In this document: positions 20,307-44,474 of the stretch, piece by piece | Layout of the letters: every line of letters begins with the position of its first letter | Numbering within the stretch: position 1 is the stretch's first letter | Virus record (IMG/VR): IMGVR_UViG_3300033076_000972 | Coordinates: 43,329-107,328 of that record | Reading direction: 5' to 3' (one strand) | DNA: 64,000 nt | Source: a virus | Taxonomy: Duplodnaviria > Heunggongvirae > Uroviricota > Caudoviricetes | Notes under the pieces: model-generated | The model's input: only the letters and a program-made list of their open reading frames with translations | What the model was told of the DNA's origin: nothing | Databases searched by the model: none | Made by a program: the position numbers and the translations under genes

Positions 20307-22136
20307 TTATCTCAATTCTCTCAAGTCAAACGTTCTAACGCCATCAACTGTGATTTTACCGTAGAAACGGTTGTTCACCATCTTCTTAGCGTATCTTGTC
20401 ATGATACCTTTGATAGGTGTGAAGTTGAATGGGTTATACATTGTTGGAGTTAATTGTAATGGTACGTATGGTGCGTACACATAACCTGTATCTAACAACG
20501 AGTTACCTTTGTGACCCAACAATACTGTGTTTGGTGGGAAATAAGGGTCTCTGTAAACTTGGTATCTACCAGCCAAAGTACCAACTCTTTCAATACCCAT
20601 GTTGTATTGGTCTTGCTCAGGAGCTGCATTTGATACGTGGAAGTATTCCAAATCATCAAAGATTGCACTGATTTCAGAAGAAACAACAATCCAGTTAGCT
20701 CCACCTCTCAATGTTGATTTGTGGATTTGTGCTGAAATTTGGTTGATTGCTGTAATCAATGTTTGGTTCCAATCTTTTTGAGTGTATTGTGTTAATGGAT
20801 TAGCAGATGTACCTCTCTTCCATCCGTTGTAATCCCATCTCAATGACCATGCCGCACCTTTTCTCAAATCTCTCAAGATTTCTCTGTCGATTTCAGCCGC
20901 AACTTGCTCAGACAATAAAGCTGTCAATTCAGCTTCAGCGTCGATGTTGTGGAATGCTGCAACGTCTTGTGCCATTTCAGGTGACCATTGAGCTCTTAAT
21001 TTTCTTTCAGTTACAGAAACTGTTACTGACTGAAGGTCAAATGATACTTCACCAATTTTATCTTCAAATTCTAACTCTTCGTATCTTCTCCAAGTCGCCA
21101 AGAAAGGAGCTTGAGCCAAAGTACCAATTGTTTGAGTTGTGAAACCTGAATAACCATCTAATGAACCTGCACCAATAGCACATGGTACTTGAGTGTCAAC
21201 TTCTAAGTAGATGATACCTTCTTGACTACAGATATTATCATAAGTACCACCGTTACCTAATGAATCAAATGTAGCTGTTGATTGTGTACCATATTGTACT
21301 ATACCTTTACCGTATTTTTGAGTAACAACTCTAAACAACAATGGACCAGTACCTAAAGAAGTACCGTTAGTTGTTCCTGTGAATCCGTTACCTGCCAAAC
21401 CAGTACGAACTGTGATTTGTAATGAAGATAAGAATTCTTCAGTATCCATTTCGTTACCGCTTGGGCCAATTAATTTACCTTCACCAGCAGTTGCAAAACC
21501 TGACATAGCAAGTAATACTTTTCTATATTCAGTTGTTTGTGTGTATGCACTAGGTACTAAATCAGAACCACTCCATGCAACTGTACCACAGTTAGAAGTT
21601 TCAGCACTGAATCTACCTTTTGAGTAGTCAAATAAACCTGGTGGGTCTAATGCTGGTTCGTTACCTTCGTAGAATCTGTCATACAAATTCTTGTCAGTAG
21701 CTTGGTTGTAACCTGCAGTTGCAGATGCTGGACCGTTTGGTGCTCCATAAGGTGCGTAGTGTGTACCACCCGCAGTTGGGTCAGTCAAGTTAGGGTCGTA
21801 AGCCTGAATTTTAGGTACGAAGTAGAACAATTTACCGATAGGTAAGTTCATTGCTTGTACAGAAACGATGTCGTTAGCTAACAACTTAGAGAAAACTCTT
21901 CTTACGATTGGAAATACAACCGTTTCGAAAGAACCGTCTGAAGATGTAGTAGCAGCTTCGTTGATTAAGTGTGATGCTTGGTTTTCATAAAGTTGAGCGA
22001 TGTTTTCTTTAACATGACCTCTCAAACCTTCCAAGAATCCTAATTTGTCCCATTTGTTAATAGTATCTTCTTTGATAACTTTAAGGTGCTTAAGACCGAT
22101 GTTACCAACAAGACCTGATTCTAATAATGCTCCCAT
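20307..22136 (-). CDS. Major capsid protein candidate
   Basis: 609 aa with strongly biased, high-expression codon usage. It is the last gene of the terminase-portal-protease-scaffold series and sits immediately after the acidic scaffold gene. Confidence 0.65.
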   Translation of the reverse strand: MGALLESGLVGNIGLKHLKVIKEDTINKWDKLGFLEGLRGHVKENIAQLYENQASHLINEAATTSSDGSFETVVFPIVRRVFSKLLANDIVSVQAMNLPIGKLFYFVPKIQAYDPNLTDPTAGGTHYAPYGAPNGPASATAGYNQATDKNLYDRFYEGNEPALDPPGLFDYSKGRFSAETSNCGTVAWSGSDLVPSAYTQTTEYRKVLLAMSGFATAGEGKLIGPSGNEMDTEEFLSSLQITVRTGLAGNGFTGTTNGTSLGTGPLLFRVVTQKYGKGIVQYGTQSTATFDSLGNGGTYDNICSQEGIIYLEVDTQVPCAIGAGSLDGYSGFTTQTIGTLAQAPFLATWRRYEELEFEDKIGEVSFDLQSVTVSVTERKLRAQWSPEMAQDVAAFHNIDAEAELTALLSEQVAAEIDREILRDLRKGAAWSLRWDYNGWKRGTSANPLTQYTQKDWNQTLITAINQISAQIHKSTLRGGANWIVVSSEISAIFDDLEYFHVSNAAPEQDQYNMGIERVGTLAGRYQVYRDPYFPPNTVLLGHKGNSLLDTGYVYAPYVPLQLTPTMYNPFNFTPIKGIMTRYAKKMVNNRFYGKITVDGVRTFDLRELR

Positions 22137-26330: not shown

Positions 26331-28169
26331 TTAACTATTTAATAGTTCATTTAATTTAGTTTCAATCTCATTAATTGAAGTTCTACCTTTTGATAAATCG
26401 ATTTCATCTCTTCCGCTAATTAAATCATCTTCCAAAATTAAATTCAAATCATTCATTCTACTTTCAGGTGTAACCTCACCTCCTGCTGGTGGTTCAGGTG
26501 TCTCAGGTGCTTCAGGAGCTCCACCTTCTTCAGGTCCTCCTCCTAATCCACCTAAACTACTCATACCTCCTGATGGTGGTCCTCCACCCATTTCTTCACC
26601 TTCTGCTGGCGGTGTTGCAACCTCACCAGGTTTTTTACCGTATAATCTATCAATGTTATCAAATATACCTGTATGAATAATAACCTCAGGTGTTTTTTGT
26701 AATTCAGCTCCAACCGCTTTTTCAATTCTTTGTTGTTGGATATCCAATTTGATTTCTTCGTCAGAGAATCCAAGAATATGTTTTTTAGCCCATGTTGTTG
26801 ATACCGCCTGAATACCATTACCAGGGTCAGCAACCGCATCTTTATAAAGAAGAATTTTTTCTTTCCAATTCTCAATCTTTAACAAATCTGCTTGAGTTGA
26901 TGGGTTTGTTAATCCTAATGTAAAGTTTGTTAATTCATCTTCAAAACCAAGTATAAATAAGTGAATAATTGCAATCTTATTTAATTCTTGAATCATTGAT
27001 TTTTGAATTCTATTAATTGTTCTTGCAAAACGAATATCTTGTAATGCTAAGTTCTTCCCATCACCAACAACCTCTTCAAAACCTAAGAATGCTTTTGGTA
27101 CACGAAGAGCTGTCAATAATTTCTTTTGGATATATTCAATATCCGCAATTTCAGAAAGGTTTTGCGCTCCCGCTAAAGTTTCAATTGGACTTGTTTGTGC
27201 TGGGTCACGAACAGGGATAAAATAATCTTGGTCAACCGCCATTTGGTTCATACGTAAATCTACGTTACCTGTCTTTGAGTCAACAACTTGGTCTCTCTTA
27301 AACTTATTGGCAATTCTTTGGATATATGGTTCGACATCCTTATCATCCATATTACCAACATAAACTTTAAATACACGTCTTTCAGGTGCTCTTGATGTTC
27401 GATAAACCAACATCGCATCTTCAGATAATAATAATTGTTTCCAAGTACGTCTTGCTTTTTCCAACATTGATGTACCATAAGGAAGTTTTCTATCATCACC
27501 TAACAAACGGAAATGTGCTACCTCCCAAGTGTTCATTTCCATATCTTTTACTTTCCATACGAATTTCAAAGATTTGGCATCTTCAACAGTATTGTGAGCA
27601 GGTTTGATTTTCATACCACGTTCCAAACGTTCAATTTCAATATTTGGAAGTTGTTGACAACCCATAATACCCTTTTCAGAGTCTAATTTTAAATAAACGA
27701 AGTTATCACCGTACTTACATGTGTTTCTTGTCCACATAGGTAAGTTAGTGTTAATATCCAATCTGTTATTAAATAAATCCGCTAATATTCCCTTAATTCT
27801 ATTTGATTCAGAATAGATTTGTAAAATAAACCCATCTTCATTTGTTGTTGTAGATTCCTCAGCGTAGATATCAAGAGCGGCAGAAATCTCAGGGGTATAT
27901 TCCATACTCTCGTAATCGTAGTATGATGCCAATCTTGTTGGTTCGTAATAAATTGCTTGAGAATATAAATTATTTTCAATCTTACCCCACTGTTGACCAA
28001 GATACATTGTTTGTTGAGCTTGGAGTTTTTCCTTCTCGTATTCTTGTTTGTCAGTGGTTTTTAATAATTCTTTTTTGTCAAATTTATATACTGGAGGCTG
28101 TTGACCCAAAGTTGAGTCGGGACCAAAGACTTTTGTAAGTCGTTGCCATATGGTTAAATTATCTGCCAT
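26331..28169 (-). CDS. Portal protein candidate
   Basis: 612 aa, immediately downstream of the large terminase, with a Gly/Pro/Glu-rich disordered region and a C-terminal tail. Confidence 0.55.
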   Translation of the reverse strand: MADNLTIWQRLTKVFGPDSTLGQQPPVYKFDKKELLKTTDKQEYEKEKLQAQQTMYLGQQWGKIENNLYSQAIYYEPTRLASYYDYESMEYTPEISAALDIYAEESTTTNEDGFILQIYSESNRIKGILADLFNNRLDINTNLPMWTRNTCKYGDNFVYLKLDSEKGIMGCQQLPNIEIERLERGMKIKPAHNTVEDAKSLKFVWKVKDMEMNTWEVAHFRLLGDDRKLPYGTSMLEKARRTWKQLLLSEDAMLVYRTSRAPERRVFKVYVGNMDDKDVEPYIQRIANKFKRDQVVDSKTGNVDLRMNQMAVDQDYFIPVRDPAQTSPIETLAGAQNLSEIADIEYIQKKLLTALRVPKAFLGFEEVVGDGKNLALQDIRFARTINRIQKSMIQELNKIAIIHLFILGFEDELTNFTLGLTNPSTQADLLKIENWKEKILLYKDAVADPGNGIQAVSTTWAKKHILGFSDEEIKLDIQQQRIEKAVGAELQKTPEVIIHTGIFDNIDRLYGKKPGEVATPPAEGEEMGGGPPSGGMSSLGGLGGGPEEGGAPEAPETPEPPAGGEVTPESRMNDLNLILEDDLISGRDEIDLSKGRTSINEIETKLNELLNS

Positions 28170-28206: not shown

Positions 28207-29976
28207 TTATCTTCTACCGAATAACCATAAATACTGTTCATAATCCTTTTTTGTTGGATTTGATGAAAAAGTATCATTATGACTTGATGGTGATAAAACA
28301 GGAATACCAGGATGAAATTGTGTTATTTCTCTGTTTGTACTATCATCGGCAACAGTCCAAGAACTTAACATGGCTTTAGTTTGTTCATTAACTTTTTCAA
28401 GTTGATTATAAGCGTTTTGACCTACATATAAAGCCATTGATATTGACATAATTAAATCATCATGATGTCCTTTCATGTGGTCAGGTCTTCCGTTCATATA
28501 CACAAACGTATTCATTTCACCAAGTAATCTTTGTGAATACAATTTAAATCCGTGTCTTAAAGCTTCCTCAAATGCTGATATAATTTGAACCCTTTTACTG
28601 TTGAAGTTAATACCTGGTATTTTTTCGTTTGACTTAACTGTTGATTCCCAAATATTTCCATAATTGATACCATCAACATATAAATTTTTATATCCCATTT
28701 CTTGTAACTTTCTTGATGTAGATACACCCATACCACCTGTGATATCAATTACAATAAATGCATCATAATAATTTCCCCACTTATATGCAATTTCAGCTGC
28801 AACATCAGGAGGTAGTTTTCCAACATATTCAGCAACTTGTTCTCTTTCATCAAAATCAATAACTTGAAACGATGTAAAGTCTTCTGAATCACCTCTTGAT
28901 ACGTCCATACCCATAATGTATCTGTGTCCAACAACTGGTTCTTTCCAAATCCACAATTGATTCTGAACCATCTTTGATTCAGGATGACGAACCATTTCAG
29001 TTCTAATTTTGTCGGTTAATTGTGCGTCAAACACGTTATCACCTGAACCCAAAAAGTTACATTCCAATTCCTGAGAAATTTTTCTCTTATCAAACTTTAA
29101 CTTTTTAGCCATGGTTTCAAACCAAGTAGAACTTACTTTGTAACCATCATCCATCAATTTTTTAAACTCATCAAAATTTCTCTCACTTTGTGGAATACCT
29201 TCATAACTTATAATTTCAGGGTTAGGATATTCTTCACGATTCAAAAAATAATGTATAATATCTTTAACCTTAATAAAATATAAATCTTTAGTATATCTTG
29301 GGTCTCTCCACCAAAACATTTCAGTAATCTTGAAATTATTCATCGCCTTTACAGCTTGTTCATAGATACTGTAATAAATTGCGTCATATCCATTCGGTGT
29401 GGAAATAACAATAACTTTACCACCTGTAGAAAGTGAAGCCATACAAGCTGCCCAGAAATCATCACCAGCCTCAATATACGCCGCCTCGTCAAATATTAAC
29501 ACGGTAGGGGTATAACCACGAAGTGCGTCATTTGACGTTGCAACGGCTTTAACCTCACAACCATTACTTAATTTCCAATGTCGAGCAGCATTTTTTTCGG
29601 TGGAAAATGTAACTCCCATCCATGCTGGCCATTGTTCTGTAAATTGTTTAATTTTATTTGCAAATTCAACAGATGTATCTAACTTGTTTGCAATAATCAA
29701 AATTTTCTCAGGTTTTTCTTTTTTAGCAAAAACCAATTTTTTTGAACTCCAAGCAGCAGTTACTGTTGATACACCCGCTTGACGATACTTTAAAGCAATG
29801 TTTTCTTCGTAGTTGTCATAATCTTCAACTAACTGAATTTGGTCGGCAAATAAATCTAAGGGAACGTATTTTGACTGTGTATTGTCATACGTTTGTAGAT
29901 ATGTTCTTAAAGCATATGGTGTGTTTCTTACACACTTGGCATATTCTATAAGGGCTTGTTCTTTTGTGATACTCAT
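28207..29976 (-). CDS. terL: Terminase large subunit
   Basis: N-terminal ATPase with a Walker A-like YRQAGVST and Walker B VLIFDEAAY. A C-terminal nuclease-sized domain is present; total 589 aa. Confidence 0.8.
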   Translation of the reverse strand: MSITKEQALIEYAKCVRNTPYALRTYLQTYDNTQSKYVPLDLFADQIQLVEDYDNYEENIALKYRQAGVSTVTAAWSSKKLVFAKKEKPEKILIIANKLDTSVEFANKIKQFTEQWPAWMGVTFSTEKNAARHWKLSNGCEVKAVATSNDALRGYTPTVLIFDEAAYIEAGDDFWAACMASLSTGGKVIVISTPNGYDAIYYSIYEQAVKAMNNFKITEMFWWRDPRYTKDLYFIKVKDIIHYFLNREEYPNPEIISYEGIPQSERNFDEFKKLMDDGYKVSSTWFETMAKKLKFDKRKISQELECNFLGSGDNVFDAQLTDKIRTEMVRHPESKMVQNQLWIWKEPVVGHRYIMGMDVSRGDSEDFTSFQVIDFDEREQVAEYVGKLPPDVAAEIAYKWGNYYDAFIVIDITGGMGVSTSRKLQEMGYKNLYVDGINYGNIWESTVKSNEKIPGINFNSKRVQIISAFEEALRHGFKLYSQRLLGEMNTFVYMNGRPDHMKGHHDDLIMSISMALYVGQNAYNQLEKVNEQTKAMLSSWTVADDSTNREITQFHPGIPVLSPSSHNDTFSSNPTKKDYEQYLWLFGRR

Positions 29977-34465: not shown

Positions 34466-35221
34466 TCAAAATAATTCATCTTCCTCTAAAGAAAGACGTT
34501 TATCCATTAGTTCATTTTCAAAATCAAATAATTTTTGAAGGTATCCATTTCTTCTTAAAACTTTAAATGTTAAATTTTCATACGAATATTCACCTTCTTT
34601 TTCTAACCCACTTGTTCTATATTTTTTAATCTTATCTTTGACTTTTTTAATCATTTCTTTGGCATCATCCAATTCTTCATCTTCAGCATTATTGATTACA
34701 GTATCAATAACATCTTGCATTTGACCTACTTTTTGAATCAAAATATCTTTATCAATATGAACGTCTTCTTCTTTTTTTGGAACGGTTTCCCATTCATCGT
34801 TCATAACTGAATAAACTCCTGATGAAAAATGAGCCTCGTTTGAATCTTGAATATATAACTCAACTTCAAATCCTCTAATTGTAATATTGTGTGAAGAATT
34901 AAATAAGGTTTTTTTTAATTTGAATAATTCAGAGTATAAATCTTTTTGTTCACCAAAATCTTCAAAATTTACAATAATATGTAAATCAACATCTGAATAT
35001 TCTGACCAATTGTAATTACATAGTGAACCCGTCATGATGATATCTTGAACAAACATATCAACATTAACAAATTTGATAAATTCTTCCGCAATTTCTTGTA
35101 GTTGGTCTCTAATCTCCAACTTCATGTGTGATTCAGGCGCATTGTCAGGATTTACCCATATCTCAGGGTTTAATTCTTCCTGTACACCAAAACTGGTGAT
35201 GATTTTTTCCAAGTCTTTCAC
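34466..35221 (-). CDS. Nucleotidyltransferase-fold protein (Pol-beta superfamily)
   Basis: MTGSLCNYNWSEYSDVDLHIIV matches the minimal nucleotidyltransferase signature hG-S-x9-13-D-h-D/E. Confidence 0.4.
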   Translation of the reverse strand: MKDLEKIITSFGVQEELNPEIWVNPDNAPESHMKLEIRDQLQEIAEEFIKFVNVDMFVQDIIMTGSLCNYNWSEYSDVDLHIIVNFEDFGEQKDLYSELFKLKKTLFNSSHNITIRGFEVELYIQDSNEAHFSSGVYSVMNDEWETVPKKEEDVHIDKDILIQKVGQMQDVIDTVINNAEDEELDDAKEMIKKVKDKIKKYRTSGLEKEGEYSYENLTFKVLRRNGYLQKLFDFENELMDKRLSLEEDELF

Positions 35222-35241: not shown

Positions 35242-35484
35242 TTACAATTTTTTGTATTTATAATTTTTACTGATTTCAGTGGTGAAAAATTTACCTTGAG
35301 ATTCGGTTAATCTGAATTGTGCGTAAACTTTGTGAGGTACATTTTCATACTCATACTTGGTACCATTTTTAAATGTAACAACCATTTTTTCGGTTGACAT
35401 ATCGTATTGTGATTCTGTGATGTTTGATGATTCAATTACATTGTAAATCATCATTCCTTTGATTTCTTCTTTTAAAATTGCCAT
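35242..35484 (-). CDS. Small hypothetical protein
   Basis: 80-aa ORF. Confidence 0.4.
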   Translation of the reverse strand: MAILKEEIKGMMIYNVIESSNITESQYDMSTEKMVVTFKNGTKYEYENVPHKVYAQFRLTESQGKFFTTEISKNYKYKKL

Positions 35485-35529: not shown

Positions 35530-35988
35530 TTAGGATTTTATTTTATTTATTTTATCCCTTAATTTTATCGACTCTTCAAAATTTTGTTCTTTAATTGATT
35601 TGTCAAGTTGTGATTGTAATTCAGCAATCTTATCTCTATTAGATTCAATCTTTTGAATTTTATCTCTCAATTCACAAGCCTTTTCAAATTCCTGTGTCTC
35701 AATCGCATTTTCTAATTCTCGTCTTAATGAAGTTAATTCATTACTTTCTTTAGGTGATTTTGTTTTTGGTCCACCATAAGATGTTGTAGTAATAACGTAC
35801 CTAAACATTCCGTTTGGTGATGTGTACGTTTCTGTTTTCCATTCACCATTTTCATCTGAACCTTCTTTAATTTCAGATTTTTCATGTGAGATTGATGAAA
35901 ACTCTCGGTCTACTGAACCCAACATTTCATCCAATTCATCCATCATTTCTTTTAAACTTTTTCTGTTTCTTCCAAATAAATCAAACAT
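35530..35988 (-). CDS. Protein with two UVR motifs (UvrB/UvrC-type; also found in the ClpC M-domain)
   Basis: EFEKACELRDKIQKIE and a second EESIKLRDKINKI coiled-coil UVR-like motif. The gene is transcribed divergently from the Clp ATPase gene. Confidence 0.45.
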   Translation of the reverse strand: MFDLFGRNRKSLKEMMDELDEMLGSVDREFSSISHEKSEIKEGSDENGEWKTETYTSPNGMFRYVITTTSYGGPKTKSPKESNELTSLRRELENAIETQEFEKACELRDKIQKIESNRDKIAELQSQLDKSIKEQNFEESIKLRDKINKIKS

Positions 35989-36132: not shown

Positions 36133-38217
36133 ATGATTGAATCACAAGACCAAAACGAAAAAATGGGTGGAAACCGAAAAGGTAAAACAGATACTATTAA
36201 CTCTAAAACACCGGTTTTAGATAATTTTTCTCGTGACCTTATTAAGTTAGCCAAAGAAGGTAAACTTGACCCTGTAATCGGTAGAGAGCATGAGATTGAA
36301 AGGTTGGCTCAAATTATATCAAGAAGAAAGAAAAACAACCCTATTCTTATAGGTGAACCTGGTTGTGGTAAAACCGCAATTGTTGAAGGTTTAGCAATGA
36401 AGATTTTTCAAGGGGATTGTCCACAAAATTTAATAGATAAACGAATTGTAAGTTTAGATATGACTTCTATTGTTGCTGGTACAAAATATCGTGGACAGTT
36501 TGAAGAACGTATTAAAGTTATTTTGGATGAATTAAGTGATAACCATGATGTTGTTGTGTTTATTGATGAAATACACACCATTATTGGTGCTGGTAATTCA
36601 TCAGGTTCATTAGACGCATCAAATATCTTCAAACCAGCTCTTGCACGTGGAGAACTCCAATGTATTGGTGCCACCACATTAGATGAATACCGTGAACATA
36701 TTGAAAAAGATGGTGCGTTAGAACGTCGTTTCCAAAAAGTTCACGTTGACCCAACATCAATTGAGGATACAATTAAGATTATGTACCGTGCTAAAGAAAA
36801 TTATGAAAAACATCATAAGGTTCATTTTAGTGATGAGGTAATCAAAACTTGTGTTATCTTGGCAGACCGTTATATTACTGACCGTGAGTTTCCAGATAAA
36901 GCAATTGACATTATGGATGAAGTTGGCGCAAGATGTCAAATCAATGTAACAGTTCCTGAAATTATTGAAAAACTTAAAGAAGAAGCGAACCAAATAAAAG
37001 AACGTAAAGTTGAAGTAGTTAGAAGTCAAAAATATGAAGAGGCTGCCGAACTACGTGATATGGAACGTAAAGTGTTGAGTCGTCTTCAAGAAGAAAAAGA
37101 AAAGTTTGAAAAGGAACGTTTAACCAATAAAAAAGAAGTTAGTGAGGAAATGGTTTATGAAGTTGTTGCTCAAATGACAAAAATTCCAATTTCAAAACTT
37201 TCACAATCTGAATCAGAATCATTGATTAATTTGGAAGAAAATTTAACAATGTCTGTTATTGGTCAAGAAGATGCTGTGTCTAAAATATCAAGAGCAATTC
37301 GTAGAAACCGTGTTGGAATTAAAGACCCAAACAAACCAATTGGTTCATTTATTTTCTTGGGTTCAACAGGTATTGGTAAAACACATTTGGCAAAACAATT
37401 GGCTAAAGAAATTTTTGGTAGTACAGATGCGTTGATTCGTGTTGACATGTCAGAATACCAAGAAAAGTTTACTATGACTAGATTGGTTGGTTCTCCTCCA
37501 GGTTACGTTGGTCACCAAGAAGGTGGACAATTAACTGAACAAGTTAAGAACAAACCTTATTGTGTTATTTTATTTGATGAAATTGAAAAGGCACACAAAG
37601 ATGTATATTCATTGTTACTTCAAGCAATGGATGAAGGTCACTTAACTGACGGACTTGGTAGAAAGATTAATTTCAAAAACACATTGATTATTATGACATC
37701 TAACATTGGCGCCAGAAAAGTTCAAGATTTTGGAACAGGTGTTGGTTTTGGTACTCGTTCTAAAAATGAAAAAGAAAGTGAGATTAAACAAATGATGGTT
37801 GAAGATGAACTTAAGAAATTTTTCCCACCTGAATTTTTAAACCGTGTTGATGATGTTATTTTCTTTAATCCACTTAAAGAAGAAGAAATTAAACAAATTG
37901 TTTCTTTGGAAATTTCAAAACTTACAACACGTTTGAAATCTATGAATTATGATATTGCAATTGGTGAGTCTTTAATCAAACAAATTTCTGATATTGGTTT
38001 TGATGAGAAATTTGGAGCTCGTCCAATCAAAAGAGCAATCCAAAATCAAATCGAAGATTTTATCTCTGATGAAATTTTAAAGAAGAATATTCTTCCTGAC
38101 ACAGTTTATTTCTTGGACTTTGTAGATGACAAGGTCCAAATAAATGAAAAAACATCAGAGTTACCTGATGTTTCAGAAAAACCAAAAAGGGGTAGAACAA
38201 AAAAAGGGGTCAATTAA
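36133..38217 (+). CDS. clpC: ClpC/ClpA-like two-ring AAA+ unfoldase that lacks the Clp_N domain and has a VGF ClpP-docking loop
   Basis: D1 carries GEPGCGKTA and [13 protein letters not shown] motif ([15 protein letters not shown]) sits in the linker. D2 carries [12 protein letters not shown] and [12 protein letters not shown]. The segment [10 protein letters not shown] contains the (I/V)GF tripeptide, and the sensor-2 GARP(I/L)KR is present. Confidence 0.9.
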
Positions 38218-38230
38218 GACCCCTTTTTTT
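38199..38230. terminator. Bidirectional intrinsic terminator
   Basis: AAAAAAAGGGGTCAATTAAGACCCCTTTTTTT. Confidence 0.7.
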
Positions 38231-39068
38231 AATCCCATAACATCCATCGTTCAGTTTTAGGTTTGTGTTCGTGGAATGTGTTACCCAAACTTTCAATCAT
38301 TTGTTTAACCATTTCAATTGCGTTGAACACATCTTCAATAACAACATACTCATTTGGTGTGTGGTAATTGTAATAACCACAAGATACATTCAAACAAGCA
38401 ATGTTAAATTTTGATGCAATTTGTGAAACGTCGGTGTACGGGTGTTTCATCAATTCATGTTTGTCTCCAAAATGTTCTTGAAGCAAAGGTCCAACCTTTT
38501 CAAAGAAAGGTGAATTACGGTCAAAAAGTTTTACACCCCAACAATATTCAGTTACCATCCAAGATTCGGGAGCATCAAACTGAATGCAGTAACCAACGTT
38601 AGAGAAAAACTCAGGACTTGCTTTTCTTGAACCATGACAACCTGTTTCTTCAGATACGAAGAAAGCGGCTTTAATTACTGGTAGTTGTTCAAGGAGATTC
38701 AAACATGAGTAGACACCACATTTGTCATCACCACCAATTCCTGTTGGGTGACCAGTCACAGCCTGGTAAGCCTTAAAAGAATCTTTTAGTTCCCCATAAA
38801 CATTTGGGAGTTGTTCTTCCTCTACAACCATTTCGGTAATCGAGTGTACGGTGTCCGTATGTGAAATTACACAAGGATAGATATCCGCATCACCTTTAGT
38901 GACATAAACGTTACCAAACTCATCGATTGTGTGGTTGTATCCTTTTTCAGTAAAATACTTGTCAAGATACTCAATCATAAGAGTTTCTTGATAAGTTTTA
39001 GTCGGAATAGAAAGGACTTCTTTTAGGTGTTGTATTTTTTCTGGTGTCATTTGACCACAAAGATACAA
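38229..39068 (-). CDS. M20/M28-like zinc metallopeptidase (short form)
   Basis: Metal-ligand motifs are ISHTDTVH (H-x-D), GIGGDDKCG (G-x-x-D-D-K-G) and SEETGCHGS (EE-G). Confidence 0.5.
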   Translation of the reverse strand: MYLCGQMTPEKIQHLKEVLSIPTKTYQETLMIEYLDKYFTEKGYNHTIDEFGNVYVTKGDADIYPCVISHTDTVHSITEMVVEEEQLPNVYGELKDSFKAYQAVTGHPTGIGGDDKCGVYSCLNLLEQLPVIKAAFFVSEETGCHGSRKASPEFFSNVGYCIQFDAPESWMVTEYCWGVKLFDRNSPFFEKVGPLLQEHFGDKHELMKHPYTDVSQIASKFNIACLNVSCGYYNYHTPNEYVVIEDVFNAIEMVKQMIESLGNTFHEHKPKTERWMLWD

Positions 39069-39076
39069 AAAATATT

Positions 39077-41227
39077 TTAAACTTCAAAAAGTTGATAATT
39101 TTTTAATAAAGAAATTAGTTGTTCAAAAGTTAATGTGTATTTATTAACCTTTGCTGAAAACCCATTAGTTTTTTCAATTTTGACAATTATTGAATTATCG
39201 GGCTCAACACCCAAAACTGTAATACCAGTATCCTTCAATGTTGGTATTTCTTTTTTAACATTAAATCCAATTTTATCAATAATATATGAAACAATTTTCT
39301 GATATTCTTCAATATCATCAAATACACCATCTTCTTCATCAATTAAATTTTCATATAATTCATCTAATAATTTTTCGGATTCAGAATTAAACCCTACGTT
39401 AAAAGTATCATAATCTCTATATTCATAGAAATTATCAAAGATGTCAGGTACTGAGATTTTTGAATCAATCGCTTCGGTAATAACGGCTCTAATTGATTTT
39501 TGTGGTGAACCATATTTTTCATAAAGTGATAACATATTGTCAACCGATGTATAATATTTACGAAAACAAACTTTGGGTTCAATATCAATTGGTTCTAAAG
39601 CATTACAATATTCATCATTAACCGCCGCCTCAATTCCAACTGTATATGCATCATCGGTAGCATATTGATATTCATCTGTCATCCCATCTTTGAACTTTTC
39701 ATGAGCACTTAAAACTTCAGCACATTTAGAATAATAATCACCCGTATAATTTTCCATCAATTCATCTTTTTGTAGAAATAATTGTGGCGAAATTATTTTG
39801 ATGATTTTATCCAATTTTTCTTTATTTTCTTCATTTAAAGATGATAAAACATAACCTTCCTTCCAATCTTCTTCTGCCATATAAGAATCCGTCCATTCAG
39901 TTTGTCTACCATAACTATTACCGGCAAATGATTCTAACTGAGATATTGTGTATTCGTACAGTTGGTGTTTAAACAATTTAAAATAATCTTCAGGGTCGAA
40001 AAGTAACATAACATTTCCGTCAACAATTTCAAAAGTTTCTTCATCACTTGTAATATTAAATGATGTGTCTGTTTTACCGTTTTTATAATTAATTAACGCT
40101 TGGTAGTCAGTACCACCTATGTTTAGAATATTACTTAATATTTCATCCATTCCTGGCATTGAGGCGTATAACACATCAAAATTTGAACGGTTGTCTTGTT
40201 GGTCCCAAACCTCAGGTTTTCCACTTTCAGGTATTCTAATTGCAAATTTTGAATTCCTTAAATTAGTTCCTTTTTTGTTTATCACATAAACAAATTTTGA
40301 ATTTCTGATATAGTCATCAAAATATCTTGAACTATCTCTTGATGCAACACACCATTTTGTTTCAGCACCATAAACACAAGACGCTTGGTGAGTCATTGGT
40401 TGAACAATCAAATATTTTTGGTCTTCATATAATTTTTTAGATTCATTTTTTGCTTTTTTAAGCTCGTCAGTTGTATATGTTCTTTTTTTGATTTGTCCAT
40501 AAAATTCTCTTATAGAATTTACGTCAGGATATGAATTGATGTCTTTTGGAGCTTTAACAATTTTATCGTATGACAAAGCAAAATTTTCCAAATCACCTCT
40601 TTTTAATCTCGCAGCCAATTCTTCGGTATCTTTTTTAGAAACTCTTCTATCGATAAAACTCATCATATCACTAACCTGAGCCATTGAATTTAAAAAACTA
40701 ATCCAATCAAGTTTTCCCAATTGTTTGCCTTGTGCTAATACCCATGGCAAATATTTTTTTGTTGGACTATTGTCACGAGCCCAAAGAGAGTCAAATATTT
40801 CTTTTTTTAAATTTTCATCATCAACATCCTTTCCCCAATCAATATCCAACTTTTTAAATTCATCAAACAAATCAGATTGTTTGTCTTCTTTAATTAACCC
40901 TTCAAAAAGTGTTCTAAGGTCTTCAGCAGGACCATTAAGGATTACGTCAATATAATGTGATGTTTCTTCAGGTTGGTCTTCTACACTACCCACAAATTCA
41001 GTTTTATCGTTAAACTCACAGTAGATACCACCATCATAAGTAATTGTCAAAGTAAAAGTTATTCCATCTCCTTCAATAACATATTGTTCAGTTCCAACAT
41101 CCATTGACTCATCATACACACATGAAATTCTTTCCGGTACAAAATTAAATTTTTCCAAAATTTCTTGTACTTTTGATATATATGAAAAATATGAGGCGGG
41201 TTGTCCGAAATAACTTATTTGTTTCAT
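39077..41227 (-). CDS. Large hypothetical protein (716 aa)
   Basis: ORF with no motif I could assign. Confidence 0.5.
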   Translation of the reverse strand: MKQISYFGQPASYFSYISKVQEILEKFNFVPERISCVYDESMDVGTEQYVIEGDGITFTLTITYDGGIYCEFNDKTEFVGSVEDQPEETSHYIDVILNGPAEDLRTLFEGLIKEDKQSDLFDEFKKLDIDWGKDVDDENLKKEIFDSLWARDNSPTKKYLPWVLAQGKQLGKLDWISFLNSMAQVSDMMSFIDRRVSKKDTEELAARLKRGDLENFALSYDKIVKAPKDINSYPDVNSIREFYGQIKKRTYTTDELKKAKNESKKLYEDQKYLIVQPMTHQASCVYGAETKWCVASRDSSRYFDDYIRNSKFVYVINKKGTNLRNSKFAIRIPESGKPEVWDQQDNRSNFDVLYASMPGMDEILSNILNIGGTDYQALINYKNGKTDTSFNITSDEETFEIVDGNVMLLFDPEDYFKLFKHQLYEYTISQLESFAGNSYGRQTEWTDSYMAEEDWKEGYVLSSLNEENKEKLDKIIKIISPQLFLQKDELMENYTGDYYSKCAEVLSAHEKFKDGMTDEYQYATDDAYTVGIEAAVNDEYCNALEPIDIEPKVCFRKYYTSVDNMLSLYEKYGSPQKSIRAVITEAIDSKISVPDIFDNFYEYRDYDTFNVGFNSESEKLLDELYENLIDEEDGVFDDIEEYQKIVSYIIDKIGFNVKKEIPTLKDTGITVLGVEPDNSIIVKIEKTNGFSAKVNKYTLTFEQLISLLKNYQLFEV

Positions 41228-41246: not shown

Positions 41247-41277
41247 TTGGCAGTTTGAGATAATATTTATATCTTTG
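41247..41277 (+). promoter_or_regulatory. Bacteroidetes-type sigma-A promoter (TTG-N20-TATCTTTG) upstream of the tmRNA
   Basis: TTG at 41247-41249 and TATCTTTG at 41270-41277 match the Bacteroidetes -33/-7 consensus TTG / TAnnTTTG. Confidence 0.5.
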
Positions 41278-41381
41278 TATAACAAATCAGGAATAACCGT
41301 AAAAATGTACCTGAAGTGAGGATACCAAAGAGTATCACACCAAACGGTTGGGAGTTTCTGAATTATGTTCTTTGAAAATAT

Positions 41382-41765
41382 GGGGATGAATGGAATCGAC
41401 AGGTATTGTTGATTGATGGATGCACGTATGAGCTGAGTTAACTCATTAAAAACTGATTTAAAAAATTAGACGGCAACGTTTTGAACAAAATGGCAGCTAT
41501 CGGTTTAATCCGTGAAGATGCTTCTGTATTAGCTTAATTGTTAGTACAACTCAGGTCGGGGGACATATAACCTAGGAACAGAAGTCTTGAGAGATGTGGT
41601 TTCTATCTTAAAAGAAACAAGTGGAGGATTAGTTCTCAGTAAACCGAACCACTATAAAATAAGGGAATTGTGAAGTTCGGAACATTAGCAAATGTTGACC
41701 TAAACGTGTAGTATCTATTGGTTAAGGTAGACTGGACGAGGGTTCGATACCCTCCATCTCCACCA
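41382..41765 (+). ncRNA. ssrA: tmRNA (SsrA), phage-encoded, with the CCA encoded in the DNA
   Basis: The 5' end GGGGATGAATGGAATCGACAGG aligns with E. coli GGGGCUGAUUCUGGAUUCGACGGG. The 3' end GGACGAGGGTTCGATACCCTCCATCTCCACCA aligns with GGACGCGGGUUCAACUCCCGCCAGCUCCACCA. A 7-bp acceptor stem (GGGGATG/CATCTCC, one G-U pair) and a T-arm GAGGG-TTCGATA-CCCTC are present. Upstream of the tag, AAAAAUUAGAC is followed by the resume codon GGC at 41472, giving the tag GNVLNKMAAIGLIREDASVLA and a TAA at 41535. Confidence 0.8.
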
Positions 41766-41771
41766 AATTAA

Positions 41772-41800
41772 AGTGGTCAAATTTGACCACTTTTTTTTTT
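41772..41800 (+). terminator. Intrinsic terminator after the tmRNA
   Basis: AGTGGTCAAATTTGACCACT hairpin followed by T10. Confidence 0.75.
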
Positions 41801-41856
41801 GTAAATTAGAAAAATTGTCGTATCTTTGTATTGTTAATCACTACCACTATGACAAC
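41791..41856 (+). repeat. Direct repeat copy 1 (T-run + promoter + 5' gene start), about 65 nt
   Basis: Near-identical to 42331-42395, with three mismatches. Confidence 0.8.
41799..41828 (+). promoter_or_regulatory. Promoter TTG-N19-TATCTTTG (duplicated cassette, copy 1)
   Basis: TTG at 41799 and TATCTTTG at 41821-41828. The ATG at 41849 is about 14 nt from the predicted TSS. Confidence 0.55.
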
Positions 41857-43143: not shown

Positions 43144-43179
43144 GATAAGTATTTGATACTTAGGTGTCAAATACTTATC
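43144..43179. repeat. Perfect 13-bp inverted repeat (hairpin GATAAGTATTTGA / TCAAATACTTATC with a 10-nt loop)
   Basis: Seen directly in the sequence. No T-run follows it. It overlaps the upstream TTG of the HNH ORF. Confidence 0.6.
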
Positions 43180-43193
43180 ATTACACAGAGTAT

Positions 43194-43703
43194 ATGGAAA
43201 AAGTATTAGTATTAAACAGCGATTACACACCCTTGAACGTAACAACAATGCGTAGAGGATTTGTATTGGTTGATAAGGGTAAAGCTGAAGTATTGAAAAA
43301 AGATGAAAATCCGATTGTTACTACTATTGGTAATTTTGTAAGACCAATCATCATTAGATTACTCAGTTATATCAGAATTAAGAAAAACGCCAAAGACATC
43401 AAGATTTCTCGTTCAAGAGTTTATCAAAGGGACGGACATGCTTGTGTATATTGTGGAGGAAATAAGAAATTGACAATTGACCATGTAATACCAAAATCTC
43501 GTGGTGGTGATAATACTTGGGAAAACATGGTCACTTGTTGTTTTGATTGTAACTCAAGGAAGGGAAGTAAGACACCTGAAGAAGCTGGTCTTAAATTTAG
43601 GGTTCGTCCTTATAGACCTTCAGTGTTTTCTGAACTTGTTGCGGGTCGTGCTGCACATATTTGGGAAGAATTCCAACACGATTTATTTGGTTTTTCAAAT
43701 TAA
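43194..43703 (+). CDS. Free-standing HNH endonuclease
   Basis: CVYCGGNKKLTIDHVIPKSRGGDNTWENMVTCCFDCNSRKG is an HNH motif with a Cys4 zinc site. The first ATG is at 43194 (the ORF track starts at TTG 43164). Confidence 0.75.
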   Translation: MEKVLVLNSDYTPLNVTTMRRGFVLVDKGKAEVLKKDENPIVTTIGNFVRPIIIRLLSYIRIKKNAKDIKISRSRVYQRDGHACVYCGGNKKLTIDHVIPKSRGGDNTWENMVTCCFDCNSRKGSKTPEEAGLKFRVRPYRPSVFSELVAGRAAHIWEEFQHDLFGFSN

Positions 43704-43781: not shown

Positions 43782-44474
43782 AAACGTATTTTGTATACCT
43801 AATTGATATTTATCAATATGGGAAATGAAAAATATACAAAAGAGTTTTTGGAATCTATCGTTAAAGAATGTGGGTCAATAAGACAAGTTTTAATAAAACT
43901 TGGACTTAAAGAAGCTGGTGGTAATTATCATAATATTAAAACAAGAATAAAATTGTTTGATATTGATATTACCCATTTTCACGGAATGGTTTGGAATAAA
44001 GGTAAAAAATGGTCAAAAACCAAAGATTTATCTTCTAAATTAGTTGAACACTCAACATATTCGTCAGGTCTTCCAATTAATACATATGTTTTGAAAAATC
44101 AATTGTTAAAAATTGGTATTAAAACCCACATATGTGAAAATTGTGAATCTATTGAATGGTTGGGTGTTGAAATTCCTTTAGAATTACACCACATAAATGG
44201 TAATCGGTTTGATAATCGTATTGAAAATATACAACTATTATGTCCGAATTGTCATGCTTTAACTGAAAATTATAGAGCCAAAAATATGAGTGCTAGATGA
44301 GAAATTGTCTAAGTAGAACTCCGTAAATTCGGTGAACCCTGTAAAATGGGAATACCGAGCCAAGCCGAAAGGAAGGTGTAGAGACTAGACACGGAGAACC
44401 TAAGTCAGTTGATATGGTTAAGGTATAGTCCAGACCACAAACTATAAATAGGTAACGAAAGTTATAGTGGTAAG
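43782..44474 (+). mobile_element. Group I intron (carries an HNH ORF) in the tRNA-Leu anticodon loop
   Basis: The conserved core is present: an R-like GAGACTAGACACGG (44381-44394) and S element AAGGTATAGTCC (44420-44431) form P7 (GACTA/TAGTC). A U precedes the 5' splice site and the intron ends in a G (44474). This is the same insertion site as the cyanobacterial and plastid tRNA-Leu(UAA) intron. Confidence 0.7.
43818..44300 (+). CDS. Intron-encoded HNH homing endonuclease
   Basis: CENCESIEWLGVEIPLELHHINGNRFDNRIENIQLLCPNCHALTE is an HNH motif with CxxC…CxxC. The ORF lies entirely in the 5' part of the intron, before the ribozyme core. First ATG at 43818. Confidence 0.7.
   Translation: MGNEKYTKEFLESIVKECGSIRQVLIKLGLKEAGGNYHNIKTRIKLFDIDITHFHGMVWNKGKKWSKTKDLSSKLVEHSTYSSGLPINTYVLKNQLLKIGIKTHICENCESIEWLGVEIPLELHHINGNRFDNRIENIQLLCPNCHALTENYRAKNMSAR

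Follow-up and report, generated by a model that had tools for sequence, protein, structure and literature searches.

A phage tmRNA family with a conserved 21-residue tag and a candidate link to a neighbouring ClpC-type unfoldase without an N-domain

The closest described relatives of the element analysed here are the transfer-messenger RNAs (tmRNAs, encoded by ssrA) of bacteria, which append tags such as ANDENYALAA in E. coli and the native 9-residue GETNYALAA in Bacteroides (bioRxiv 10.1101/2025.03.18.644028). Phage tmRNAs are known from mycobacteriophages and Bacillus phage G (PMC4131195), occur in ~2.3% of isolate genomes (PMC9004378) and are carried by huge phages (PMC7162821); they are listed in genome papers and have almost never been studied. 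The latter two surveys relied on ARAGORN, a tool that misses more than half of the tmRNAs of the family described below. Here we describe a one-piece tmRNA gene at positions 41382–41765 (+ strand) of a 64-kb stretch of the Caudoviricetes record IMGVR_UViG_3300033076_000972 (the window, from a genome that as a whole is probably at least 130 kb), together with its homologues in 132 viral loci. The RNA is predicted to encode a conserved 21-residue tag, and a gene for a ClpC-type unfoldase lacking the N-terminal domain lies upstream of it. A phage tmRNA as such is not new; what is new is a large, phage-restricted lineage with a conserved long tag that standard tools under-detect. We found no description in the literature of the tag family, of its link to ClpC, or of the combination of a tmRNA with an N-domain-less ClpC and an M20 peptidase.

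The overall organization of the window tmRNA is that of bacterial SsrA. Both have a tRNA-like domain (TLD) with a G3:U pair, a T-arm and a CCA end, an A-rich sequence ahead of the resume codon with U and A at positions −5 and −4, a stop codon in the loop of helix 5, and a tag that closes with hydrophobic residues and Ala. In contrast to bacterial SsrA, the phage tag has 21 residues rather than 9–10, carries an internal motif of its own and ends in V-[VA]-A (VLA in the window) instead of LAA. The tag frames of Bacteroides and of the phage both open with a Gly resume codon, whereas the remaining tag is distinct. Like the tmRNAs reported from Bxz1-like phages, phage G, the OM43 phage Melnitz (a two-piece tmRNA) and huge phages, those described here belong to large lytic phages; the reported ones are sometimes accompanied by smpB and tRNA genes, and smpB lies beside the tmRNA in four relatives here (L066, L087, L098 and L112). 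Unlike the reported phage tmRNAs, the present family forms a separate lineage with a conserved long tag and a fixed place near the N-domain-less ClpC and the M20 peptidase.

Precedents exist for tags that are read by a protease other than ClpXP. In Mollicutes, a longer, non-LAA ssrA tag co-evolved with such a protease, namely Lon (PMC9382460), and the mf-SsrA/mf-Lon pair of Mesoplasma florum is the best precedent for matched specificity of tag and protease. However, the switch in Mollicutes followed the loss of ClpXP in a cellular lineage, whereas here a virus would add a tag and a presumably paired unfoldase to a host with a system of its own. In S. aureus, ClpPC together with the adaptor TrfA reportedly controls SsrA-tagged proteins, as work by Donegan in 2014 is said to have found. 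The ClpC proteins of S. aureus and B. subtilis and ClpC1 of M. tuberculosis share with the phage protein two AAA+ modules, a short M-domain and a V-G-F loop for ClpP; the phage protein differs from the cellular ones in having no N-domain, in being phage-encoded and in that no clpP was found nearby. Judged by analogy, the Mollicutes and S. aureus precedents make a pairing of the phage tag with the phage ClpC plausible.

The tmRNA gene matches Rfam family RF00023 along the entire model (positions 1–374 of 374; 100.8 bits against a gathering score of 47; E 3.4e-38) at 41382–41765 on the + strand, exactly the coordinates that a preliminary description of the window had given, and this is the sole RNA family that Rfam finds in the 64 kb. 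The tRNA-like ends claimed in that description can be read directly from the sequence. The 5′ strand of the acceptor stem, GGGGATG (41382–41388, +), which supplies the G3 of the G3:U pair, is matched by the 3′ strand CATCTCC (41755–41761, +), followed by the discriminator A and an encoded CCA (41762–41765, +), and the T-arm GAGGG-TTCGATA-CCCTC (41738–41754, +) is canonical. The G3:U pair, an alanine identity element, is retained in 90 of the 92 family members whose ends could be parsed; in the same set, acceptor positions 5–7 show compensatory changes and the T-stem covaries at all five pairs. ACCA is encoded in 60 of these 92, and the other 32 have no encoded CCA. The retained G3:U pair and the stem covariation are the comparative signature of a functional, alanine-chargeable RNA. 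Pseudoknot 1 (PK1) aligns to RF00023 as a nested hairpin with two non-canonical pairs, in a model that does not represent pseudoknot pairing.

Relatives of the window tmRNA were gathered by three independent routes, starting from a 716-residue neighbour protein, from short DNA anchors outside the tag and from the ClpC-like protein. With nhmmer, the first two routes yielded 111 copies (80 distinct) and the ClpC route 59 further copies, only 3 of which contain the exact earlier DNA anchor. The merged set comprises 132 family tmRNAs from viral contigs with 93 distinct tags, each tag being read from the column aligned with the GGC at 41472.

A comparison of these sequences defines the tag reading frame. 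In the window, the A-rich frame-setting sequence AAAAAAUUAGAC (41460–41471, +) places U at −5 (41467) and A at −4 (41468), and AAAAAAUUAGAC followed by GGC aligns with the Rfam consensus AAAAAAUAAuU followed by GCa. The −4 base is A in all 131 family sequences counted and the −5 base is a pyrimidine in 130 of them. Their counterparts in E. coli tmRNA, A86 and U85, set the reading frame; mutation of A86 leads to loss of function or to a shifted frame, and U85C is tolerated (PMC2481249). The frame beginning at the GGC resume codon (41472–41537, +) runs for 21 codons, encoding GNVLNKMAAIGLIREDASVLA, to a TAA stop at 41535–41537, so that with the Ala carried by the tmRNA itself the appended peptide would be AGNVLNKMAAIGLIREDASVLA. 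The same frame is found throughout the family (20 codons in 9 members, 21 in 109 and 22 in 14, giving 132 of 132 and 93 distinct peptides), in contrast to the +1 and +2 frames, whose lengths are erratic. Mean entropy over 56 distinct 21-codon tags is 0.80 at the first codon position, 0.70 at the second and 1.21 at the third. Near-invariant positions of the tag are G/D1, N2, G11, L12, A21 and the stop, and the family pattern reads G-N-[VT]-[LFIY]-x-K-[ML]-x-[AT]-[LIV]-G-L-[ILV]-R-[ET]-[ESD]-x-V-x-V-A, with REDA, RTEE, AEEA and RGSE among the variants of positions 14–17. Sequence and comparison together establish a translated 21-codon frame under protein-level purifying selection. The resume codon and tag length proposed in the preliminary description agree with this family-wide frame of 20–22 codons and its invariant −4 A.

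The stop codon has the setting expected of a tmRNA. A helix 5 hairpin, UGUAUUAGC / GUUAGUACA (41525–41548, +), presents the TAA in a UUAAUU loop that matches the canonical helix-5 loop, and the frame-0 stop lies inside a hairpin in all 64 distinct family sequences compared, with stems that vary in sequence. Rfam instead places helix 5 and the stop on CGG-UUUAAU-CCG within the tag, at low posterior probability; the TAA of that element is out of frame, and the true hairpin is the one that encloses the TAA at 41535. The out-of-frame UUUAAU is probably also the feature that defeats ARAGORN, which at default settings reports no tmRNA in the window. Lowering its threshold to 80% (-ps80) recovers a tmRNA with the remark ‘Tag not identified’ and an implausible resume site (VSTTQVGGHIT), and this output was dropped as a guide to the tag. 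The preliminary description had proposed a check by ARAGORN or Rfam: the Rfam half came out clearly in favour, with its full model match, while the ARAGORN half returned nothing at default and no tag at 80%. Since ARAGORN gave no usable tag, the tag was established by comparison with relatives. Its difficulty extends to the family, as it detects 34 and misses 46 of 80 members, and for about half of the 34 it reports no more than the last 8 residues of the tag.

Two other readings of the tag were considered and set aside. The +1 frame, GCA ACG TTT TGA, would open on the canonical Ala resume codon GCA and give the tag ATF, and its stop is kept in the closest relatives (as TAG in place of TGA in L003); this frame was rejected on its length, which ranges from 3 to 49 codons across the family, and on its placing G, not the invariant A, at −4. 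The peptide GNVLNKMAA was considered as an ancestral 9-residue tag later lengthened by loss of a stop. Positions 7–9 are M/L, A/E/S/Q and A/T with no conserved xAA, and 0 family members have a stop there. As matters stand, the comparison makes it very probable that the window encodes a functional tmRNA with the tag GNVLNKMAAIGLIREDASVLA.

The tmRNA is phage-encoded and lies in a T4-like phage genome. Genes for a T4-type major head protein (20307–22136), a portal (26331–28169) and a large terminase (28207–29976) stand 11–21 kb upstream of it in the window, and a tmRNA occupies the equivalent position in orthologous loci of IMG/VR contigs (39–134 kb). These structural genes, together with the near restriction of the RNA family to viral contigs, bear out the phage origin that the preliminary description had assigned. 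The major capsid proteins nearest to that of the window are 41–45% identical and come from an uncultured 484-kb phage, Microcystis phage Mel-JY01 and Flavobacterium phage immuto. A conserved 19-mer in the PK2 region, TAACCTAGGAACAGAAGTC (41568–41586, +), occurs exactly in 101 viral stretches that differ in tag and tRNA-like domain, and with at most 2 mismatches in 36 of the 59 tmRNAs of the ClpC route. Among 185,579 bacterial and archaeal species genomes (one each), it was found in one 7.4-kb contig, binned into a Flavobacterium metagenome-assembled genome. A blastn search with three divergent family members against 50,697 GenBank phage records gave only generic 33–50-nt matches to the T-arm. 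By these searches, the tmRNA family appears essentially confined to viral contigs; the carriers are uncultured T4-like myoviruses, probably of Bacteroidota, and a Flavobacterium host is hinted at.

The C-terminus of the tag bears on the fate of tagged proteins. A canonical ending is typical of ssrA tags and does not define them, as the tags of Mollicutes end in FA (PMC9382460). Of the 93 distinct family tags, 90 close with Ala, which follows a V, A or T; the endings seen most often are AVA (18), VVA (18), VAA (16) and TVA (15). The VLA of the window is a rare variant of the V-[VA]-A ending of the family. The window tag has no canonical (A/L)-A-A proteolysis motif, and it is ssrA-like all the same. 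The preliminary description, which held that the tag lacks the canonical ALAA degron, is correct to the letter, in that the tag ends in VLA, but not in the sense of a lost degron. Its further proposal that the tag would spare products from host ClpXP finds no support: besides the ssrA-like C-terminus, an unbiased screen in E. coli found FKLVA to be the strongest C-terminal 5-mer degron, with ClpXP degradation kinetics similar to those of YALAA (PMC10862746). With Ala behind small hydrophobic residues at the end of 90 of 93 tags, the C-terminus gives no sequence reason for escape from Clp-type proteases, and the tag is probably a proteolysis signal. What sets it apart is its length and its conserved internal motif, which look like an added element for specificity or adaptor binding. 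Among the proteins of the 137 open reading frames (ORFs) in the window, none naturally ends in a tag-like [VAITL][VATLGS]A.

The unfoldase encoded upstream has several features of a ClpP partner. This ClpC-type double-AAA+ protein of 694 residues (36133–38217, +), 3.2 kb upstream of the tmRNA, aligns continuously with residues 154–813 of S. aureus ClpC (E 1e-222) and contains the Pfam domains AAA, AAA_lid_9, AAA_2 and ClpB_D2-small. Seven divergent homologues show no variation in either Walker motif pair (GEPGCGKT/DE and GSTGIGKT/DE) or in the KYR and GYVG loops. ClpP-docking unfoldases carry an (I/L/V)-G-(F/L) tripeptide in D2, in a loop that ClpB lacks; the phage protein has G-V-G-F at residues ~535–539, where GTGVGFG aligns with the loop of S. 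aureus ClpC, and its G534, G538 and F539 are invariant in the seven homologues. Its M-domain is short and carries a UVR-like motif, as in ClpC and unlike the long coiled coil of ClpB, whose structures match the phage protein in two separate stretches. The first residue of the phage protein corresponds to ClpC residue ~154, and Pfam gives no Clp_N match; what is missing is the N-terminal domain, with which ClpC binds adaptors and phospho-arginine. The protein is for this reason referred to here as an N-domain-less ClpC-type unfoldase and not as a canonical ClpC. The tmRNA-linked form is encoded in >590 viral stretches; the exact sequence of the window ClpC matched no record in public assemblies.

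The genes for the tmRNA and the unfoldase keep company across the family. Viewed from the tmRNA, 40 distinct variants have an upstream flank of 5.5 kb or more, and in 30 of them clpC and an M20 peptidase gene lie directly upstream. Viewed from ClpC, a tmRNA is present in 11 of 11 loci with enough flank when a single protein is the query, and when an alignment is used, 51 of the 52 loci whose downstream flank reaches 4.5 kb have it 2.0–5.2 kb downstream on the same strand. Two genes on the opposite strand intervene in the window. The first encodes an M20/PepT-like metallopeptidase of 279 residues consisting of the catalytic domain only (38229–39068, −); it matches Pfam Peptidase_M20 and phrog_4191 ‘peptidase’ (E 3e-42), has intact HTDTVH, GGDDKCG and EETG motifs and C-terminal H, aligned to the PepT structure 3gb0, and is encoded in every one of the 47 complete ClpC loci. 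The second encodes a fast-evolving 716-residue protein (39077–41227, −) that diverges from the tmRNA promoter region; it has no Pfam or NCBIfam match, and homologues with a mean identity of 27% occur in 42 of the 47 loci. The association of ClpC and tmRNA suggests, short of proof, a functional link between them. The preliminary description had named the ClpC-like gene as a candidate partner, and as such it remains reasonable, being a ClpC orthologue with a ClpP loop and linkage in 51 of 52 loci; the case is weakened by the collinear gene block discussed below. That the phage ClpC is the receiver of the tag we regard as a tentative proposal, falling short of a probable one.

The following account is, taken as a whole, the explanation we somewhat favour, with the ClpC step entering as the likeliest option and not as an established one. 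Phage destruction of host transcripts would make stalled ribosomes plentiful. The phage tmRNA would be charged by host alanyl-tRNA synthetase and taken by host SmpB to ribosomes that have stalled on broken mRNAs, where the nascent chain would gain Ala followed by GNVLNKMAAIGLIREDASVLA; host SmpB and host ClpP are assumed here since neither smpB nor clpP was found in the window. With less certainty, the tag would act as a two-part degradation signal, in which the C-terminal Ala after small hydrophobic residues could be engaged by a Clp-type unfoldase and the conserved G-N...K-[ML]...G-L-[ILV]-R could serve as a specificity or adaptor-binding element. The likeliest dedicated receiver would be the N-domain-less phage ClpC, docking on host ClpP through its VGF loop, and the PepT-like M20 peptidase might help to break the products down to amino acids for use in phage synthesis. 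In its fullest form this becomes a private tag-and-destroy channel in which the phage tmRNA writes a 21-residue degron, the phage ClpC reads it and hijacks host ClpP, and the M20 peptidase finishes the work, a form that we consider doubtful as a complete description; the nucleotidyltransferase and KTSC protein encoded upstream of clpC may contribute to it too. Were it true, the tmRNA and the unfoldase would form an orthogonal pair that converts the unfinished host proteome into amino acids outside the competition or control of host ssrA/ClpXP.

Several observations weigh against the explanation above, its ClpC step included. The entire upstream block is collinear in 47 of 47 loci (6 kb on each side of clpC), with the terminase close by; it consists of two unknown proteins, the nucleotidyltransferase, the KTSC protein, a UVR-motif protein (27 of 47), clpC and the M20 gene, with the tmRNA at its edge, and with the block collinear as a whole the linkage of ClpC and tmRNA may be mere inherited gene order. 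The two do not form one operon, since the M20 gene and the 716-residue ORF lie between them on the opposite strand. Ten of the 40 tmRNA variants have no clpC within 5.5–11 kb and sit in unrelated neighbourhoods, and a single tag subclass, ...NVY..ME..G[IL][IL]ATS.VA, accounts for all ten; it includes jumbo phages on contigs of ~334 kb such as IMGVR_UViG_3300027804_000001. Conversely, distant huge phages that carry clpC at 50–59% identity (LR745206, LR756502 and LR756508) have no family tmRNA within 12 kb. Canonical ClpC normally requires its N-domain and adaptors. Neither clpP nor smpB was found in the 64-kb window (smpB being sought by tblastn and by a hidden Markov model from four phage SmpBs), and blastn against the GenBank phage records found no cultured phage that carries the family. 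In the main alternative, possible if somewhat unlikely in our estimation, the tmRNA and its tag work, tagged proteins are handled by host proteases only (ClpXP, ClpAP, Lon, FtsH or Tsp), and the job of ClpC is unrelated, its position reflecting conserved gene order. The ssrA-like C-terminus fits such an account, with xVA-type endings being good ClpXP degrons in E. coli, as do the collinear block, the separate transcription units of clpC and tmRNA, and the ATS subclass, which keeps the tag architecture with no clpC nearby. Handling by host proteases leaves unexplained, however, why the tag should have 21 residues and a conserved internal motif when a host-type tag has 9, as in GETNYALAA of Bacteroides, and it likewise leaves unexplained the phage tmRNAs with short canonical tags that have no clpC in their flanks, which are short.

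Three other alternatives are less likely. The tag might not be mainly a degron, the tmRNA serving to make ribosomes available for phage translation or as a response to host defences that cleave mRNA or tRNA; roles proposed for phage tmRNAs do include the upkeep of hijacked translation machinery (PMC9004378). The peptide would then have another role and might, for example, sequester tagged chains, saturate or inhibit host proteases and adaptors, or mark host proteins, and the conservation of N2, K6, M/L7, G11-L12 and R14 does exceed what a simple C-terminal degron needs. Adaptor-binding regions account for internal conservation as well, the E. coli ssrA tag holding a site for the adaptor SspB, and the near-invariant Ala after small hydrophobic residues is a hallmark of ssrA tags recognised by Clp proteases, so that we judge this alternative improbable. 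Still less credence attaches to the idea that the RNA is no tagging tmRNA, being either a decaying gene or an inhibitor that, for instance, titrates SmpB. Titration of SmpB has been proposed for the TLD-only molecule of mycobacteriophage DS6A (PMC4131195), and the close relatives L001, L003 and L004 have aberrant T-loops (GGCAGTA), with L004 scoring under the Rfam threshold. The window tmRNA has a canonical TLD, however, and an untranslated decoy would not maintain the frame, the stop, the −4 A, helix 5 and codon-like substitutions over 132 copies, which makes this reading very improbable. Finally, ssrA is a common site of prophage integration (PMC9004378), and the gene might be a bacterial ssrA at a prophage boundary or part of a bacterial region. 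Against this, the tmRNA lies 41 kb into the window, flanked by T4-like genes for head, portal and terminase and, at its other side, by HNH endonucleases and phage ORFs, the 19-mer is found in 101 viral stretches as opposed to one 7.4-kb contig among 185,579 species genomes, and the Bacteroides tag differs; an origin in host DNA is scarcely credible.

If the phage ClpC reads the tag, the locus would hold the first matched tmRNA–unfoldase pair encoded by a virus. Such a pair would be a natural orthogonal degradation system, of use as a synthetic-biology part akin to mf-SsrA/mf-Lon, and would explain in concrete terms how large phages recycle host translation products. With the link to ClpC left aside, the family still provides a clean comparative dataset for the evolution of tmRNA frame-setting, helix 5 and the tag.

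Three of the genes upstream of clpC lie on the − strand. A UVR-motif protein of 152 residues (35530–35988; Pfam UVR, E 3e-12), present in 27 of 47 loci, weakly resembles the C-terminus of McsA (NCBIfam McsA, E 4e-8, far under the family cut-off). It is followed outward by a KTSC-domain protein of 80 residues (35242–35484; Pfam PF13619, E 2e-16) and a Pol-beta-type nucleotidyltransferase of 251 residues (34466–35221; weak matches to Pfam NTP_transf_2 and MTPAP-like_central; phrog_36119), both present in all of the 47 loci. Elsewhere, KTSC domains occur C-terminally in some lysyl-tRNA synthetases. It is pure speculation that the nucleotidyltransferase and the KTSC protein act on the tmRNA, for example in repair of the 3′ end where CCA is not encoded, as in the 32 of 92 relatives mentioned above.

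Putative transcription signals flank the tmRNA. A promoter-like box, TATCTTTGTAT (41270–41280, +), precedes the mature 5′ end by ~100 nt. The exact 11-mer occurs in four + strand copies within 2.5 kb (41270, 41821, 42360 and 43709), each ahead of the tmRNA or of a small + strand ORF, and fits the −7 promoter element of Bacteroidota, TAnnTTTG. The repeated box is likely a phage promoter of this type; when one mismatch is allowed, the window has 8 copies, not significantly more than shuffled sequences. An intrinsic terminator with a 10-bp stem and a T-run (41770–41801, +) begins 5 nt past the CCA, in a scan that gave 1 site against 0.4 expected from shuffles.

Other RNAs were encountered near relatives of these genes. 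In two uncultured ~640-kb phages, a GOLLD RNA (RF02032, 275–287 bits) and tRNA genes lie 2–6 kb upstream of the ClpC homologue (L114, 9538–9943, +, LR745206.1; L115, 6064–6470, +, LR756502.1). Three unrelated phage tmRNAs (L005, 1754–2092, −; L006, 2274–2608, −; L007, 2606–2940, −) have a 19-nt 5′ end in common with the window tmRNA; they carry short canonical tags (DTFARPMAA, ANTQYRLAA) within tRNA arrays, and ClpC was not found in their short flanks.

The window tmRNA is itself a mosaic. Its tRNA-like domain is of the L076/L017 type (100% identity at the 5′ end and 93–94% at the 3′ end), PK1 and the tag match L001 (98–100%), and the PK3–4 region matches L004/L010 (99–100%), the remaining segments being only 54–69% identical to L001 and L004. 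This segment-wise identity suggests modular recombination between phage tmRNA genes. Two HNH endonuclease genes adjoin the tmRNA in the window (43164–43703, +, and 43803–44300, +), and a subclass-2 locus has a weak SegE-like GIY-YIG match under the Pfam cut-off (L070, 3958–4620, −). Free-standing homing-type endonucleases beside the tmRNA gene fit both the mosaicism and the introns found in the gene. Group I introns (Rfam RF00028, 68–73 bits) split the T-loop of three family tmRNAs (L060, 1787–2006, +; L032, 343–548, −; L112, 1689–1903, −) as TT, then ~206–220 nt, then CGACT. The second exon, holding the 3′ half of the T-stem and the acceptor strand, thereby lies ~207 nt downstream, and the split genes score under the Rfam tmRNA threshold.

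A subclade that includes the nearest relatives of the window tmRNA has a T-loop of GGCAGTA or GGCGGTA in place of TTCGAxx (L001, 5453–5845, −; L003, 5461–5844, −; L004, 5456–5837, −; also L009, L050 and L100), and the L004 tmRNA falls under the Rfam gathering score. In the same subclade the D-loop analogue has AG in place of GG, a correlated change at the tertiary contact between the D-loop and the T-loop.

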